From an uncultured virus (IMG/VR IMGVR_UViG_3300013382_000005) (Duplodnaviria; Heunggongvirae; Uroviricota; Caudoviricetes): a DNA stretch of 64,000 nucleotides. A program made the translations under genes and the position numbers. Below the pieces are notes generated by a model that worked only from the letters and a program-made list of their open reading frames with translations, was not told the origin of the DNA and ran no database searches. The DNA lies in the IMG/VR virus record IMGVR_UViG_3300013382_000005. One strand, written 5' to 3'. Below are positions 4,952 to 15,082 of the stretch, one piece after another. Every line of letters starts with the position of its first letter. The first letter of the stretch is position 1.

Positions 4952-5503
4952 ATGAAAGAAATTGCAACAGTGAAGCTTGCTCCAGGCAATGTAGCCTTTT
5001 ATGATGAGCTTACTAAGATTCATCTGACGCTTAGTAACCCTTATGCTAAGATCTATGAAGGTATGAATCTCAAACGCATTAAGGCATCTGTAAAATATGG
5101 CACCCTTCGTGTCGTTGTCGGTTCTCTTGTTACTGATACGGTTACCGAAGTTCCGGTTAAAACTATCCATGATCCTATAGAGCCAAAACAGACAACTGTG
5201 CCTGAAGTTAAGATTCAGAATATAGAGACCAAGCCTGCTGTAGAAGAGACAGAGTCTAAAGAAGATATCATCGCTCCAGTTATTGAAGACCCAAAGGCTG
5301 ACGATGCTACAGTAGAAGACATCGTTGCAGAAACTGTTCCAGCTGTTGAAACTCCAAAAAGCGAAGCTGAATCAGAAACTGAATCCGAATCAGATATTAA
5401 CCAAGAACAACCTGAAAAAGAAGCACCGAAGCCTAAGCGTGGGCGCAAAAAAGCAGCTGCTACTACAGAAACTGTTGAATCTACTGATAATACAGAGGCA
5501 TAA
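4952..5503 (+). CDS. Hypothetical virion-associated protein with acidic disordered tail ending in a basic KPKRGRKK patch
   Basis: GAGAGGA RBS; 183-aa ORF. Confidence 0.65.
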   Translation: MKEIATVKLAPGNVAFYDELTKIHLTLSNPYAKIYEGMNLKRIKASVKYGTLRVVVGSLVTDTVTEVPVKTIHDPIEPKQTTVPEVKIQNIETKPAVEETESKEDIIAPVIEDPKADDATVEDIVAETVPAVETPKSEAESETESESDINQEQPEKEAPKPKRGRKKAAATTETVESTDNTEA

Positions 5504-5506
5504 TAC

Positions 5507-5578
5507 ATGGCTTGTAAAACAAAAACCAAAACCAAAACTACTAAACCAAAGAGTAGTGGTAAAGGTAAGTGTAAGTAA
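5507..5578 (+). CDS. 23-aa lysine-rich micropeptide MACKTKTKTKTTKPKSSGKGKCK
   Basis: GAGG RBS just upstream; ATG 5507 and TAA 5576-5578; fills the intergenic gap. Confidence 0.5.
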   Translation: MACKTKTKTKTTKPKSSGKGKCK

Positions 5579-5604
5579 TTATTTTTAGAAAGGTATAACA
5601 ACTG

Positions 5605-6384
5605 ATGTATAGAGAATTTAATTTTACATCAATAGATACTGATGCAAAAAATAAAAACATAACAGTTGTTATGACGGCTGCAATTGATGAATCTACTGTT
5701 CATGGAGACAACATCCAATTGCTTGATTGTACAACCAATCATTTTGTTTTAATAAATTACGAAGTTGATATAGAGAAGCTAATTATAACTCTTCCTGATT
5801 ATCCATTGCCTAACAGTAGATATTCACTGGTTATAAAAGGAATCAAAGACATAACTGGTAATGCACTTTTAAGAGGTATCAATTATATTGTTGAATTTAC
5901 AAGCGCAATTAAAACAGAAGCCAAATTTATTAAACCAGCTTTTTCAGAAGAAGTAACAGATGATCTTGTATTTAGTTTACAAGAGTATGTCCCCGAGAAA
6001 GATGTTCCACATAAAGATGATATAAAATTCTACAATTCATTTTTAATTGAAGTATCTCTTGATAACCTATTTAATAATATTATCTTTCGTACAGAATTAA
6101 TTGATCGCAATAGTATGACTGTAATGGATCTTCAGAACGGTCAATATTATGCAAGAGCAAGGGTACAAAATAATAATGAGTATGGTATCTGGGGTCCAAT
6201 AATCACTTTTGTACTAAATAAGCAAGAAAAAGAAGAACCAGATGAGCCCATCTTCTATAAACCATTAACAATTGTCTCTGTACCTAAAGACGGTGATGAT
6301 GCATCTTCTTTCTATATTGAGATGAGTGAAGAAGCTGATGAAGATACTCTTGATTCTATCAAGGTATATAGGAGGATGCTATAA
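5605..6384 (+). CDS. Ig-like/FN3-like domain virion protein
   Basis: N-terminal pattern (IDESTV...YSLVIKGIKDITGNAL) resembles Big_5 Ig-like domains; GQYYARARV..YGIWG resembles FN3. Confidence 0.55.
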   Translation: MYREFNFTSIDTDAKNKNITVVMTAAIDESTVHGDNIQLLDCTTNHFVLINYEVDIEKLIITLPDYPLPNSRYSLVIKGIKDITGNALLRGINYIVEFTSAIKTEAKFIKPAFSEEVTDDLVFSLQEYVPEKDVPHKDDIKFYNSFLIEVSLDNLFNNIIFRTELIDRNSMTVMDLQNGQYYARARVQNNNEYGIWGPIITFVLNKQEKEEPDEPIFYKPLTIVSVPKDGDDASSFYIEMSEEADEDTLDSIKVYRRML

Positions 6385-9203: not shown

Positions 9204-9238
9204 CGTTAATTTTGGAAAAATTGAGGAGGAGCCAATTA

Positions 9239-12175
9239 ATGGCACAAACAACTTCCATTTTCTTTCAGGATGAATTACTCCCTGGTGTATTAACCGAGAT
9301 CCAGCAGGATTATAATTATGGTTATTATACTACTACTTGGGGCACCACGTCATCAGTACTTGTTTTAGGTACTGCATTTACTGGCCCTCTTAATAAGGTT
9401 GTAAAGATTTATAGTCCTGAACACGCACTCTTTGTTTTTGGTAATACATATGATTCTGCTAATCATAAAGAGGCTTCACTTGTTACTGGTATCCAGGATG
9501 TATATGATAAAGGATGCAGATCCATTTATGCTTGCCGTATAGCCGGTAAGGATATTTATAAGGATTTCGAGCTTGCTCCAAACCTTGGTTACAAGCTCCG
9601 TGTATCTGGTGCATATCCGTCTAATGAGTGCAAGGATATGTATATCAGATTCGTAAATGATGGTATTCACCTTAAACTGATTTATTATAAGCCAGCTGAT
9701 AGATCCACTATCTATGAGAAGATGAATGGTGTCGTCGATTCTGCTGATTCTATGATTGAAACTGTTCTTGATCTTAGTGGCACTTGGGGTTATACTTCTG
9801 AGACTAAGATTTCTGAACTTATCAATCTCTTTAATACATATAGAACCAATAATGTTTTAAGACTCAGTATTGTTAAGGATGGCGTAGATGTTACTTCTAC
9901 TGATCCTGAGGCTCAGAATCTTCCTATCGCTTCTATCTTCAGCGGTATGTACTTTATAGGCAGAGATAAGAATCTGTGCGATGCATTTACCCTCGTAGAT
10001 GATAAGCTTGCAGAAACTGATAATCTTTGGAAGAAGCGCACAAATGTCAATACCTTCAGAGTGCTTAAGATAAATACTGATATCAACGCATCGTATCCTA
10101 TCGCTGGTGAATATGATGCACTCAGAAATATCTTTACTGCTGTTACTACTACTTCAACATTTGACTTTGTTGATAATGTGGCTAATATCGATCTCCTTTA
10201 TGGTAAGGATGATACTGATTATGAGCAGGTAGATATCTCTGGTTTTGATCTCTATAAGGCTCTTGGTTCAGGTTTTGCTACTACGGCTCATATTGAACTT
10301 AAGAATCCTGATATCCAGAATCCTACTGAAAAGGACTATGTAGTTAAGGAAACTGGTGAAGATAATACAAATAGAATTGTAGCTATCTCTGATGGTCTCT
10401 ATTCTATGCTTCAGAATGTTCCTACCGATTATAGAGTTCTTGCACATTCTTCTGCTATTGAAAGTATGGATACAAAGCTTCCGAGTAAAAAGGAATTCCT
10501 TACTAAGGTTGCTGGCGACATTCAGTTTATTAAGACTGATGACGACAAGAAAGCAATTAGAATCACTCCTATAGTTAACGATGATACTGATATCTCTGAT
10601 ACCAATAAGTTTTCGTTTGACCTGTCTATAGTCGCTGATGATACTATTGTTCCTGTAGAGACCAAAGATTGTGCTGCTACTCATACTGCTAAGGCAATTG
10701 CAGTTGTAACTGATAATTCTGCTGATAGCATCAAAGGTATCAAAGATGGCGAAACCTTTGCTATCAAGACTGAAGATTCTTATGATATCTTCCTCATGAG
10801 AAATGGTACTCAAGTTTCAATTGACGGTATGAAGTCTGTCTTTGATGGTGAGTACTTCTTCGATGTAGAAAATGGTAAGATTCTTAAGGTTACCTATTCA
10901 GAAAACCAGACTGCTCCTGCAAAGACATATGCTGTTACTGCTATGGACTATTCTACTTATACTGCTGATTCAATCAGTGATGGCGGCAAAGCAAACTTCC
11001 TTGTTTCTCTTGATAATAATACTTTCGTAGCTAAATATGATGAAACATCTAACAAGGCTGACATTATTGGTTCTATTGATCAGGTTCTTACTTCTGATGC
11101 TTCTGGTATTTATGTAATCCCTGCTCTTCACAATAGTGGCAATACTCATAAGATTATTATCACTGAGGATTATGCAAGCGCTAATACTTATGAGTCGTTT
11201 ATGCACGACTTAGAGTCTGCTCTTGGCAAATCTTTTACATTTGAATATGCAGAGAATTTTGAGTCCTATAAAAATGAATATCTTAATAGCGATGCAGCTA
11301 CATTAAATAATCAGACTACTGTTGCTGGGTTATTTGCAAAGCAAGTATTTGATACTACTAAGTATATTCCTTATAAGACTACTGACAATCTTGCTAGACA
11401 GCTTGCACAGCATTGCACATATACTTCTATCAAGACTGGTTCTACTCATGGTATTATTGGTTATCGTAAGATAAGCGATACTTCTATTACCGGTATTGCT
11501 AAAGTCGTTGATCAGGCATGCAAGACTGACTTTGACTTATATGCTAAGAGACCTAATGGCAAGTATATGCTTGACAAGGATAGTTCTCCATATAATATTG
11601 GCAAGAATATCTCCATGACATTTGGCTGCTACTATGTAACCACTGCTGATGGTTATAAGTATGTTTCTAATGGCGCTGGTGGATATGCTGGTATGATTTC
11701 TGCTCTTTCTATAGATCAGTCTTCTACTAATCAGCCAATCGATATTGACGAGCTTCCATTTGAATTAACTAATTATCAGCTTGAGAATCTTACCAACGCT
11801 GGATTTGTTACATTCAAGAATTCTTATACTAAGGGCACTGTTGTTACTGATGGTATCACGATGGCACCTAATACTTCTGCATTTAAGAGACTTAGCACCA
11901 CAAGGATTACCGGTTTCATTGAGACCTTAATTCGTAGTGCATGTGAGCCATTTATTGGTCGTCAAAATAACCTTGCAAATCGTAATTCTATTAAGACTGC
12001 TGTTAACTCCGCACTCTATAAGATTATGGGTACTCTGATCAAGGATTTTGATTTCACAATCACCTCTGATCTTTCTCAGCAGAAGCTTGGCATAATCGAT
12101 ATCGATTATGTAATCGTTCCTTATTATGAGATTCGTCAGATCCGTAATAGAATCACTATTAAGGATTCTATATAA
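9239..12175 (+). CDS. Tail sheath protein (978 aa)
   Basis: GAGGAGG RBS favours ATG 9239 over TTG 9212. N-terminal LPGVLTE; C-terminal LSTTRI...FIGRQN...VPYYEIRQIRNRI sheath signature. Confidence 0.88.
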   Translation: MAQTTSIFFQDELLPGVLTEIQQDYNYGYYTTTWGTTSSVLVLGTAFTGPLNKVVKIYSPEHALFVFGNTYDSANHKEASLVTGIQDVYDKGCRSIYACRIAGKDIYKDFELAPNLGYKLRVSGAYPSNECKDMYIRFVNDGIHLKLIYYKPADRSTIYEKMNGVVDSADSMIETVLDLSGTWGYTSETKISELINLFNTYRTNNVLRLSIVKDGVDVTSTDPEAQNLPIASIFSGMYFIGRDKNLCDAFTLVDDKLAETDNLWKKRTNVNTFRVLKINTDINASYPIAGEYDALRNIFTAVTTTSTFDFVDNVANIDLLYGKDDTDYEQVDISGFDLYKALGSGFATTAHIELKNPDIQNPTEKDYVVKETGEDNTNRIVAISDGLYSMLQNVPTDYRVLAHSSAIESMDTKLPSKKEFLTKVAGDIQFIKTDDDKKAIRITPIVNDDTDISDTNKFSFDLSIVADDTIVPVETKDCAATHTAKAIAVVTDNSADSIKGIKDGETFAIKTEDSYDIFLMRNGTQVSIDGMKSVFDGEYFFDVENGKILKVTYSENQTAPAKTYAVTAMDYSTYTADSISDGGKANFLVSLDNNTFVAKYDETSNKADIIGSIDQVLTSDASGIYVIPALHNSGNTHKIIITEDYASANTYESFMHDLESALGKSFTFEYAENFESYKNEYLNSDAATLNNQTTVAGLFAKQVFDTTKYIPYKTTDNLARQLAQHCTYTSIKTGSTHGIIGYRKISDTSITGIAKVVDQACKTDFDLYAKRPNGKYMLDKDSSPYNIGKNISMTFGCYYVTTADGYKYVSNGAGGYAGMISALSIDQSSTNQPIDIDELPFELTNYQLENLTNAGFVTFKNSYTKGTVVTDGITMAPNTSAFKRLSTTRITGFIETLIRSACEPFIGRQNNLANRNSIKTAVNSALYKIMGTLIKDFDFTITSDLSQQKLGIIDIDYVIVPYYEIRQIRNRITIKDSI

Positions 12176-12196: not shown

Positions 12197-12325
12197 ATGA
12201 ACGATAATACTTCAGTTGAAAAATATACAGAAACTTATACTTCTTTTAGCGGCGCTGATATCGTAGCTTCATTCAATGGAGTTGTGATTGGTGAGCTTCA
12301 GGGTATAACGTATTCAGTTTCAAGA
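12197..12325 (+). CDS. Tail tube protein, exon 1 (missing from the ORF track)
   Basis: GAGG RBS and ATG 12197. MNDNTSVEKYTETYTSFSGADIVASFNGVVIGELQGITYSVSR matches the paralogue at 13397 (TQTYTSFSGADMVA...GTLQTISYSLH). The unspliced frame stops at TAA 12335-12337. Confidence 0.88.
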
Positions 12326-12720
12326 GAAACGAAGTAAAAATATTTACTTCACAAACTTCTCCGTGTATACAGTAATGTATGCAGGACACGACCTTAAAAC
12401 CAGTAATCGCTAAAACTTTGTTACTACAATAAGAGATAGAATCAGAAACTCTTATGAATGTGAAGAAATTCGGAAACAACAACAAAGATTGTATATGATG
12501 AGAATCTAAGTACATAAAATGCGTGTTTGGTCTCCAAGTCAGAAATGATATGGTCAAACGACTATGGATTGAAAAATCCGTAAAGCTGCAAGCTATTGGC
12601 AGAAGAAATGGGTCGCCCCTAATAGGTAATGCTAAGGGTGAAGAAATAGTCTACTCACATCTTAATTGGATGTGCAGCCAATATGGCGTAATAAGATTAG
12701 CGATCTTATTAGAATATAAG
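12326..12720 (+). ncRNA. Group I intron-like ribozyme (IA2-like), no homing endonuclease; boundaries uncertain by a few nt
   Basis: P2 with GTAA tetraloop (12364-12383); P3 CGACCT 12389-94 / GGGTCG 12610-15; P4 ACCAG/TTGGT; P7 A-C(bulge)-GACTA 12558-64 / TAGTCT 12647-52; J8/7 GAAGAAA; P7.1 GGATT-GAAA-AATCC; three P9 hairpins; terminal G. Removal restores the reading frame and paralogue alignment. Confidence 0.85.
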
Positions 12721-13281
12721 GAAAAAGCTCCGATCTACACGCTCGGTTCCCCAGAACCTCGTTCCTTCTCTAGAGGAAAAAGAGGCATAGCTGGTACTCT
12801 CGTATTCACTATGTTTAACCGTGATGCTCTTCTCGAAGAGTTCAAGGCTCATAACCAGATGAATAAACTCCAGAAATTCAAAGGCAATGTTTCAAGTACA
12901 GACATTGGCGGCTATACTCCATATACATCTATTGATGAATGGGATAGAGCAATGACCAATGGCACATACAGCAATGATGGTTCTTCTACTGTCCAGACTA
13001 CTGGTGATCTTGTAGATAAGAATGCAGATGCTGCATATGCTGATGAAATTCTGCCGTTCGATATTACAATTACTTTTGCTAATGAGTATGGTCAGAATGC
13101 AGTTGCTACTATCTATGGTGTTGAGCTTCTTAACGAAGGCTCTGGATTCTCCATTGATACAGTTTCTGCTGAAAAGGCTTATACATTCATTGCACGCAGA
13201 ATCAGCTATATGAAGAAGGATGACGGTACTACCGAACTCTCTAACTCTCATAAGCTCTCTGGTGCATCTTACGCAGAGTAA
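12721..13281 (+). CDS. Tail tube protein, exon 2 (joined product about 229 aa)
   Basis: EKAPIYTLGSPEPRSFSRGKRGIAGTLVF...ADEILPFDITITFANEYG aligns with ERNAVRSIG...GPRTIAGSLVF...ADELPPFNVTITFANEYG of the 13397 gene; follows the sheath gene. Confidence 0.88.
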   Translation, partial: EKAPIYTLGSPEPRSFSRGKRGIAGTLVFTMFNRDALLEEFKAHNQMNKLQKFKGNVSSTDIGGYTPYTSIDEWDRAMTNGTYSNDGSSTVQTTGDLVDKNADAAYADEILPFDITITFANEYGQNAVATIYGVELLNEGSGFSIDTVSAEKAYTFIARRISYMKKDDGTTELSNSHKLSGASYAE

Positions 13282-13396: not shown

Positions 13397-15082
13397 ATGT
13401 CCCAATTAGAAAATATCACACAAACTTATACGTCATTCAGTGGTGCTGACATGGTTGCTGTGTGTAATATCTTAGGTGAAGACGTTGTTTTAGGAACACT
13501 CCAGACAATCAGTTATTCACTTCATATGGAGAGAAATGCTGTAAGGTCTATTGGTAATATCAATGCAAAAGACTATACTCAAGGCCCACGTACAATAGCA
13601 GGCTCTCTTGTTTTTGCTGTTTTTGATAAGCATGTACTTTATCATATGGCAGAAGCATTTAAATACAACAATAAGTATAAAGATAATAAATATACTCAGC
13701 TATATGGTAAGTATAAATCCTTTACTAATAATAGACATGTATTAGCTGATGAATTGCCGCCATTCAATGTCACAATAACATTTGCAAATGAATATGGTAA
13801 TAGATCCAAGCTTGCTATATATGGTATCAGATTATTGAATGAAGGACAGGTTATGTCTGTCAGCGATCTTTATACCGAAAATACTTATCAGTTTGTCGCG
13901 CTTGATATTGACTATCTTTATTCTGGTGATCCACAATTAAATTATGAAGATGATGACGAATCAGAGGAAATAAAAACTCCTCAGATTAATACATCAAAGA
14001 ATTATAAGTCTGATGATAGTATAGTTATTGAGCATATAAATCATGATTATACAAACAGTCTTAGTTTGATCAATATATCAAAAAAGAGCCTAGACGAAAA
14101 CGCAAAATTAAATGGCGGTATATTATATGTAAAGCAGGCGTTGTTAAGCGACGCCCAATGGCACGAATATCCCATACCAAAAAATAATACAAATACGTAT
14201 CGAGAAACCTTACGCCTTGAAAATGGTGTATATAATGCTTATTTCATTGAATCTGAAACAGATTTAAAAAGCAATGAAATAACAATAAACATTCATGATG
14301 AGGTCAGAGCATTCAAACCGATAATCGAAAATACTATATATCGTAATGGAGAATTATACCTAAAATTCAAGCTCTTCAGTGCATTATACTTTGGACATAC
14401 AACACTTAATCTTCGCGATTCATCTAAAACAAGAATTAAGAGTTATGCAATCGATGAAAATTATAATGCATATATTCCATTCTCGGATTTGAAAGATAGC
14501 AATAAATATTATCTAGATACAAGTCGCAAAGATAAAGATTATAGTTCACTCGAAACATATACTGCTTCACATATATTCGAATTAAACTTCTCTGCTGAGA
14601 TATTCGATATAATTCAATTTATTCAAAATCATTGGATACAAGAATATGAAAGTGAATTATTAATGGTGATAAAAGAATTCTATAATAATCAATCTACATT
14701 CTTTTATTCGGCTTGTACCATGATGATTAAATCGCAATCATATGCAGACAATGACAGATTCTATTATACATTTTTAAATCGTATATGTGATCTTGAAAAT
14801 GAATATTTGCAATTAATAAATGGAGAGAATTTCTTACCTCCAGACAAAACAGACGCAAATGAAATTTATTATCTATCATGTCTCGGTACAGCATATGAAA
14901 CTAAGAAAGATATAATTGTATCTAATCTGAATCAGATGGTTGAGTTTGGCGAAGATCCCAAATTCTATAATGTTCCAAGCATTACAAACAATAAACGGTC
15001 ATACGCTTATTATTATTGTATGATTAACAGATCCACAAAAGCACTGTCAACTATATTAGGAGGTATCAGACAATATGAATAA
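13397..15082 (+). CDS. Tail-tube-domain protein with C-terminal extension (tube initiator-like)
   Basis: First ~175 aa are clearly paralogous to the intron-split tube protein. Confidence 0.75.
   Translation: MSQLENITQTYTSFSGADMVAVCNILGEDVVLGTLQTISYSLHMERNAVRSIGNINAKDYTQGPRTIAGSLVFAVFDKHVLYHMAEAFKYNNKYKDNKYTQLYGKYKSFTNNRHVLADELPPFNVTITFANEYGNRSKLAIYGIRLLNEGQVMSVSDLYTENTYQFVALDIDYLYSGDPQLNYEDDDESEEIKTPQINTSKNYKSDDSIVIEHINHDYTNSLSLINISKKSLDENAKLNGGILYVKQALLSDAQWHEYPIPKNNTNTYRETLRLENGVYNAYFIESETDLKSNEITINIHDEVRAFKPIIENTIYRNGELYLKFKLFSALYFGHTTLNLRDSSKTRIKSYAIDENYNAYIPFSDLKDSNKYYLDTSRKDKDYSSLETYTASHIFELNFSAEIFDIIQFIQNHWIQEYESELLMVIKEFYNNQSTFFYSACTMMIKSQSYADNDRFYYTFLNRICDLENEYLQLINGENFLPPDKTDANEIYYLSCLGTAYETKKDIIVSNLNQMVEFGEDPKFYNVPSITNNKRSYAYYYCMINRSTKALSTILGGIRQYE

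Follow-up and report, generated by a model that had tools for sequence, protein, structure and literature searches.

The tail-tube gene of an uncultured gut phage is most probably interrupted by a group I intron whose upstream exon ends in G and not in U. In the reading we prefer, to which we give a probability of roughly 0.78, exon 1 would end at G12326, the intron would occupy 12327-12721 with G12721 as its omega G, and the joined product would read SRE|KAP. The DNA analysed, referred to here as the window, is a stretch of 64,000 nucleotides that is part of a 114-kb IMG/VR virus record with an estimated completeness of 48%.

The gene lies downstream of a tail sheath gene (987 aa; 9212-12175; phrog_16991) and is split into two pieces, the first of which (12197-12337) encodes MNDN...ITYSVSRETK followed by a stop, while the second continues in the frame EKAPIYTLGS... 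from about 12721 to 13281. Both pieces match phrog_9206, which is labelled 'major head protein' in PHROGs; the place of the gene after the sheath gene and the annotation 'tail tube protein' on a GenBank phage relative of the exons suggest that this label is wrong for 12197-13281. A search with exon 2 as query returned 3301 relatives, and 12 of the 15 that were fetched are uninterrupted proteins of 216-228 aa. The residues R-E-K-A-P are invariant in all 18 of the aligned full-length homologues. The two exons are as follows.

12197 to 12326, plus strand: exon 1 of the tail-tube gene (MNDN...ITYSVSR and the first base of a Glu codon), from the ORF, the phrog_9206 match and the 18/18 homologues; its last base is probably G12326.
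12722 to 13281, plus strand: exon 2 (bases 2 and 3 of the Glu codon, then KAPIYTLGS... to the stop), from the ORF, the phrog_9206 match and the homologues.

Directly downstream (13397-15082) is a 561-aa gene with an N-terminal tube-like domain (MSQLENITQTYTSFSGAD...; phrog_9206, E 2.6e-40) and a long unmatched C-terminal part, and intron-free relatives (L056) likewise contain a tandem pair of tube-like genes. Searches of GenBank phages by blastn returned only exon matches for the gene region and only short core matches for the intron, none of them annotated as an intron. No second copy of the intron was found in the 114-kb record, and no second J8/7 motif beyond chance in the window.

Since REKAP is invariant, the mature RNA must read AGA GAA AAA GCT. 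The exon 1 frame runs AGA (12323-25), GAA (12326-28), ACG, AAG (12332-34) and TAA (12335-37), and that of exon 2 runs AAG (12718-20), GAA (12721-23), AAA, GCT and CCG; GAAA is therefore present at both borders, which limits the end of exon 1 to A12325, G12326, A12327, A12328 or A12329. There is no U among these permitted ends, and every junction that restores the protein leaves a base other than U at the end of exon 1, just as the first-pass annotation had noticed. A terminal intron G is left only if exon 1 ends at A12325 (intron end G12720) or at G12326 (intron end G12721), and with the gene split at 12326/12722 the joined frame reads ...SVSREKAPIY.

Joins that do use a U alter the protein, with U12319/G12720 giving SVEKAP and U12335/G12727 giving SRETKSP. 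The latter had been proposed as a third option beside non-canonical splicing and ribosomal bypassing, and there is something to be said for it, in that U12335 lies within a hairpin, G12727 is in phase and the frame stays open; but U12335 pairs with A12346 and not with a G, SRETKSP breaks the residues that are invariant in 18/18 homologues, and the in-frame GAAAAAG that is kept in all relatives at the tube site is left unexplained. Moreover, two relatives (L210 and L138) have neither such a hairpin nor such a U. We regard this junction as very improbable.

By the conservation and covariation of its core, the insert is a group I ribozyme, and its parts can be assigned as follows.

12327 to 12721, plus strand: putative group I intron of 395 nt without an ORF, from a weak RF00028 match, a covarying fold and identity to an IStron; moving the border by -1 leaves the mRNA unchanged.
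12361 to 12385, plus strand: P2 hairpin with loop AGUAAU; 9/9 pairs show compensatory changes, and the same loop is found in Twort orf142 intron 2.
12389 to 12394, plus strand: 5' strand of P3, partner 12610-12615 (alignment helix).
12399 to 12531, plus strand: P4 (12399-12403/12527-12531) around an extended P5 domain (alignment helices 3-9).
12534 to 12553, plus strand: P6/P6a with a GAAA loop; 4/4 pairs compensatory.
12560 to 12564, plus strand: 5' strand of P7, GACUA, partner UAGUC at 12647-12651, the G-binding helix (alignment helix and Rfam alignment).
12566 to 12602, plus strand: P7.1 (12566-79) and P7.2 (12586-602), read from the sequence and in the same order as in Twort intron 2; we take these to be the peripheral hairpins of subgroup IA.
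12610 to 12651, plus strand: 3' strand of P3, P8 (12617-38), J8/7 and the 3' strand of P7 (GGGUGAAGAAAUAGUC), from the Rfam alignment and covariation.
12656 to 12711, plus strand: P9 (12656-61/12669-74), P9.1 (12677-79/12685-87) and P9.2 (12689-97/12703-11), read from the sequence.
12721, plus strand: probable omega G, last base of the intron; relatives at the tube site all end ...AAGG|AAAAAGC.

The Rfam model RF00028 aligns to P8, J8/7 and P7 with 16.2 bits (E 0.17), below its gathering score of 50; at the gathering threshold Rfam has no match in the window, and an E-value scan of the whole window gave only chance-level matches. The fold was therefore derived from an alignment, running from the guide sequence to P9, of 18 distinct family members (the window and 17 relatives), from which L093 and L090 (long insertions) and L113, L191 and L131 (partial or spurious) were left out. 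RNAalifold of these 18 sequences recovers P2, P3, P4, the extended P5, P6a and P8. When P7 is added, the resulting 12 helices have 95.2% of 1033 cells paired, compared with 78.4±0.7% in shuffles (0/500 as high) and 29-43% when the partners are slid by 1-3 columns, and 40 of the 58 pairs in the alignment show compensatory changes. The core helices P3 to P8 stand in canonical order with the P3/P7 pseudoknot, and P7 (GACUA 12560-64/UAGUC 12647-51) together with AAGAAAUAGUC aligns to the Rfam model, in agreement with the consensus of a G-binding P7 and J8/7. All 18 sequences share P7 and J8/7 unchanged, though the set was chosen in part by its J8/7-P7 motif, and an invariant P7 is compatible with the fold without being informative. 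L005, a relative at the same site, keeps the P9-region helices through base changes. At least 118 viral loci contain the 16-mer GGGTGAAGAAATAGTC, and 20 contain a P3-P4 motif. The ribozyme is presumably of an IA2-like subgroup.

The placement of the 5' splice site depends on P1, which is formed by these elements.

12324 to 12328, plus strand: 5' strand of P1, GAG|AA, with the putative splice site between G12326 and A12327 (MFE pairing with 12357-12361; same register in relatives).
12357 to 12361, plus strand: internal guide sequence UUCUC, in which C12359 faces G12326 and U12358 faces A12327 (alignment and MFE).
12331 to 12350, plus strand: L1 hairpin, named a 'take-off hairpin' in the first-pass annotation, a variable P1-loop insert with the in-frame stop TAA at 12335-12337 (sequence and MFE fold).

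The MFE fold of 12318-12388 contains the L1 hairpin, the pairing of GAGAA (12324-28) with UUCUC (12357-61) and P2, at -19.6 kcal/mol (z -4.25; 0/200 shuffles as good). The hairpin itself, GAAGTAAA-AATA-TTTACTTC (12331-38/12343-50), has 8 Watson-Crick pairs and no G.U, and the earlier observation of a hairpin at the P1 position without a U.G pair thus holds; the matches of AAG (12332-34 and 12718-20) and of GAA (12326 and 12721) noted at the same time are both real, and the description of the sequence was accurate in every detail. Nor is a wobble available elsewhere in P1, as the guide UUCUC contains no G.

Of the 18 aligned rows, 17 have a C in the guide sequence opposite exon position -1, the remaining one (L141) being misaligned, and a C at this place implies that exon 1 ends in G. 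A complementary NNG is found upstream of the intron in the 14 rows with the exon nearby; in three ORF-bearing rows the exon is farther away. The base facing +1 is G in 9 rows, forming a U.G pair, U in 7 rows including the window (A-U), and A in one (U-A). A U.G pair shifted by one position is accordingly missing too in the window, where A12327 pairs with U12358, as it is in all of the tube-site introns and in L138 and L136, and the P1 helices of all of these are Watson-Crick throughout. The window P1 has only 3 exon pairs. From well-studied ribozymes, a P1 with few exon pairs and no wobble would be expected to make the 5' splice site less well recognized. For one member, L158, a reading that puts a U at -1 is available too, so the rule of a G at this position may fail in some of the family.

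Introns of the same family in other genes have junctions that the protein fixes independently. For the terminase intron L133, intron-less homologues read KKQAKL (AAKRKKQAKLLI, ASGVKKQAKLII) and the interrupted gene yields AAGTKG|QAKLIV; only the exon ...AAAGGG joined to CAAGC... stays open, and inclusion of the U leads to stops, although a second upstream GGGU would allow canonical borders if the protein lost 3 residues. The homologues of the tape-measure intron L196 read ARGLRS, and L196 gives KVARG|LRTIG only without the U, the inclusion of which again leads to stops. The first base of both introns is a U that pairs with a guide G, and the last base is G. Similarly, the halves of the Dit gene that flank the IStron L229 join only as G|U...CGG|U. 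Another placement, with the 5' cut moved to follow the +1 base and the 3' cut moved one base beyond the G, was tried and rejected: it creates a stop in L133, changes a conserved Leu to Phe in L196 and would make the terminal base variable. An origin of the GAAA repeat as a transposon target-site duplication was ruled out, L133 and L196 being without such a repeat.

The same way of reading returns canonical junctions where these are expected. The Twort record is without intron annotation, and its junctions were re-derived from the sequence, giving AU|...UG| for all three orf142 introns and exons of 345+41+23+20 nt, or 142 codons plus the stop. L210's second intron, a member of another family, reads CCGGU|...AAAUUG| with a canonical U.G and omega G and gives the expected PVYTMG.

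Within the junction window set by the protein, G12326|...G12721| and A12325|...G12720| yield the same mRNA, and the choice between them therefore rests on homology of the P1 register. With the intron shifted by one base (12326-12720), exon 1 would end at A12325, paired to U12360, and G12720 would be the omega G; the intron still ends in G, and the mRNA is identical. In L133 and L196, however, where the junction is fixed by the protein, the exon base at -1 is a G that faces the first C of the guide triplet and aligns to G12326, and the relatives at the tube site all end AAGG|. We thus consider the shifted form unlikely, and place the exact cut at G12326 by inference from the register.

At least four other phage contigs (L005, L208/L219, L210 and L220) carry an insertion at the tube site (xRE|KAP). 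In L005, whose tube protein is 73% identical, the same intron stands at the same place with a 321-aa LAGLIDADG ORF (PF14528, 28.4 bits) where the window has its hairpin, and P0002 is an intron-less allele that is 98% identical to L005 exon 2. L208/L219 contain a related intron with an ORF. The L1 of L210 is without a hairpin (AAGAG AAAUAUAA UUCUCC), L220 has a different hairpin in L1, and in the tape-measure intron L138 P1 is the same and the loop is 6 nt long, with no hairpin.

Several of these genes contain further introns. In L210 (rc 1240-1700) and L220 (rc 1236-1821) the first intron is followed by a micro-exon of ~15 nt (GAAAAAGCNCCGGU) and then by a second intron, which is of another family; the second intron of L220 has a LAGLIDADG-like ORF inside, and L210 has a third intron after ...SRGK. 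The tape-measure genes of L138 (1-400) and L158 (1-390) have two tandem introns, the upstream one with an ORF ending ...YDG(V/I)QH(F/Y)E...KLIRI(P/S)YW(D/E)FD, which looks like a Vsr/DUF559-type endonuclease.

Comparison among the tube-site relatives bears directly on the suggestion that ribosomes bypass the insert. In T4 gene 60 a gap of 50 nt is flanked by matched codons, with a stop in a stem-loop after the first codon. By analogy, ribosomes in the window would take off from AAG12332 (or GAA12326) and land on AAG12718 (or GAA12721), with the ribozyme fold as a scaffold, and both the matched codons and the stop within the hairpin are there, L005 also keeping the AAG plus stop. However, the gap is 385-395 nt in the window, at least eight times that of T4 gene 60 and made up of a conserved ribozyme, and about 1.37 kb in L005, where it holds a whole endonuclease ORF. 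L210 and L138 lack the proposed take-off hairpin, L220 has another one, and L005 has the 321-aa ORF in its stead. L210 has AUA before its stop and L220 has CUA, whereas the terminal codon is AAG throughout, such that the co-variation of pre-stop and terminal codons that was to be looked for is absent. The AAG route would in addition produce SRETKEKAP, two residues longer than every homologue, and the pattern of covariation is that of a catalytic core, P7 and J8/7 included. Thus neither conserved matched codons, nor a conserved stop-bearing stem-loop, nor a short non-coding gap is found, the signals are not kept in relatives, and no nascent-peptide signal is evident. Bypassing is exceedingly improbable, and non-canonical splicing is the one option of the three that gains support, with a precedent shown by experiment in a ribozyme lineage close to this one (PMC4227781).

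Whether the gene is functional at all must also be weighed, for the insertion could be a non-splicing one, with the gene dead and the paralogue at 13397-15082 supplying its function. The wobble-free P1, the missing RNA evidence and the adjoining tube-like gene would accord with this; but several diverged phages keep the same insertion between exons that are both intact, a relative of ~94% DNA identity in other samples keeps the intron with both exons open, and compensatory changes preserve the helices of the ribozyme. Both genes are present in intron-free relatives (L056) as well. A dead copy is thus improbable, if less so than a junction at U12335, and the copy in the window presumably splices.

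Sequencing runs found for the locus had only small shares of the words (0.10-0.17). Of the four compared with it (X1, X5, X7 and the RNA run X16), DNA contigs contain the ~94% relative with its intron. The RNA run gave only an unspliced contig covering 12194-12454 and an exon 2 contig covering 12756-13168, with no joint spanning the intron. A joint between 12431 and 12626 in the run contigs was rejected, as it derives from another intron of the family. Many other contigs in all four runs match only the P3'-P8-J8/7-P7 stretch at 12611-12654 and have unlike flanks, and the intron family in those samples is abundant and diverse. Runs X5 and X7 are labelled pig gut metagenome. One X5 contig matches the window over 12244-12318 and then departs from it, running on as ...CAGCCGTGAAAAGGCTCCAATT; this tube allele has no intron, its codons around the insertion site differ (AGC CGT GAA AAG), and an intron-bearing relative is present in the same run.

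Over 276 nt the window ribozyme shares 74.5% identity (E 3e-34) with an element that carries TnpB and is present on three Clostridium plasmids. The copy in L229, which has a TnpB gene and splits a distal-tail-protein gene, has the target ...AAGG (after ...GAAGAAGG) and the end ...AACGG. The distal tail protein in L229 (669-5746) is annotated as two CDS (669-2903 and 5120-5746), which join in frame once the ~2-kb ribozyme and TnpB element is removed. In group B IStrons the 5' exon ends in G and the U-G pair is shifted by one bp, with targets after AGGG, TGGG or GAGG and in one case after AG, and BcISt1 of Bacillus cereus splices after G, as RT-PCR and sequencing of the ligated exons without the U show (Tourasse, Stabell and Kolsto 2014, NAR 42:12333; PMC4227781). 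The kinship of the ribozymes thus places the window intron in a lineage in which the cut after G has been demonstrated by experiment, and like the group B elements (BcISt1; Clostridium CbISt) it has an IA2-type ribozyme, an exon G paired to C, a predicted cut one base before the usual U position and a terminal G at its 3' end (PMC4227781). By its P1 register the window reads AAGAG|A, agreeing with the GG or AG target and G-ended exon of that group. It differs from group B IStrons in being without the IS607/TnpB part and without an ORF of its own within 12327-12721, a relative instead having a LAGLIDADG homing endonuclease; its first base is an A paired to U and not part of a shifted U-G, its 3' end is AGG and not CGG, and its insertion point is a conserved site of homing type within a structural gene of a phage.

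Group I introns in phage tail genes have other relatives. Landthaler and Shub (1999) reportedly described introns I1-I3 in orf142 of the Staphylococcus phage Twort. The window intron shares with Twort intron 2 the P2 loop AGUAAU, the order P7-P7.1-P7.2-P3'-P8 and the J8/7/P7 motif, and with all three its kind of host gene, orf142 being a tail-tube gene (PMC11878797). The Twort introns are nevertheless canonical (AU|...UG| with U.G), and their Rfam scores are 64-101 bits, that of the window intron being 16. The P7.2 region of the window has a match of 29 nt in another Staphylococcus phage, Romulus (L225; 27798-27941), between the genes for 'tail lysin' and 'tail tip protein' and beneath a small 'hypothetical protein' and predicted promoters; this is possibly an unannotated intron. 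Tourasse and Kolsto (2008) describe group I introns from prophages of the Bacillus cereus group, in the same kinds of host genes (tape-measure, terminase and tail-tube), which like that of the window are inserted in frame with a stop within the first intron bases (PMC2504315). By the description in that paper virtually all introns follow a U, unlike that of the window (PMC2504315).

Taken as a self-splicing intron related to those of Twort and the IStrons, and as we presume IA2-like, the element at 12327-12721 would operate within an essential tail-tube gene as follows. Exon bases G-A-G (12324-26) would pair with guide bases C-U-C (12359-61), and before the first step A12327 and A12328 would lie on U12358 and U12357; the cut would then fall after G12326, paired to C12359, and not after the U of a U.G wobble. 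With omega G12721 ending the intron, A12722 and A12723 would replace A12327 and A12328 on U12358 and U12357 as P10, and the ligated mRNA ...TCA AGA G|AA AAA GCT... would encode SREKAP. The matched GAA would then arise because either the G at -1 or the omega G precedes two A's that pair with the same two U's, and the AAG match would come from the intron's conserved ...AAGG end together with an AAG that stands in L1 by chance. The hairpin at 12331-50 would be a variable P1-loop element, at the site where a relative has its LAGLIDADG gene, and its in-frame stop would halt ribosomes ahead of the ribozyme core.

The U.G wobble at the 5' splice site is held to be nearly universal in group I introns. 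The window intron appears by its sequence to be a phage-borne, transposase-free member of the 'splice after G' lineage that has no U.G in P1. The cut after G is itself already known by experiment from IStrons, and what goes beyond that precedent is that the shifted U.G is gone too (PMC4227781).

There is a whole phage-borne branch in which exon 1 would end in G, and in which the window has also lost the neighbouring U.G. The reading removes the spectacular-looking claim of a 385-nt ribosomal bypass, and it bears on annotation, in that the tube gene was called as two fragments, Rfam misses the intron at its gathering threshold, and such introns are hard to annotate. A further step, which is possible but which we would put at somewhat below even odds, is that the phage branch of the IStron-type lineage selects its 5' splice site without any U.G wobble in P1; the sole invariant would then be the G(-1)-C pair, the next position being U.G, A-U, U-A, C-G or an A/G mismatch. 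If so, a natural group I ribozyme would locate the bond it cuts without relying on the wobble pair, perhaps by measuring a fixed distance from P2 or by recognizing the G at -1 directly. This would answer a question left by the 2014 IStron work, of whether the one-base shift needs a U-G pair (PMC4227781), and the family would offer a natural test case of how a ribozyme finds its cut site.
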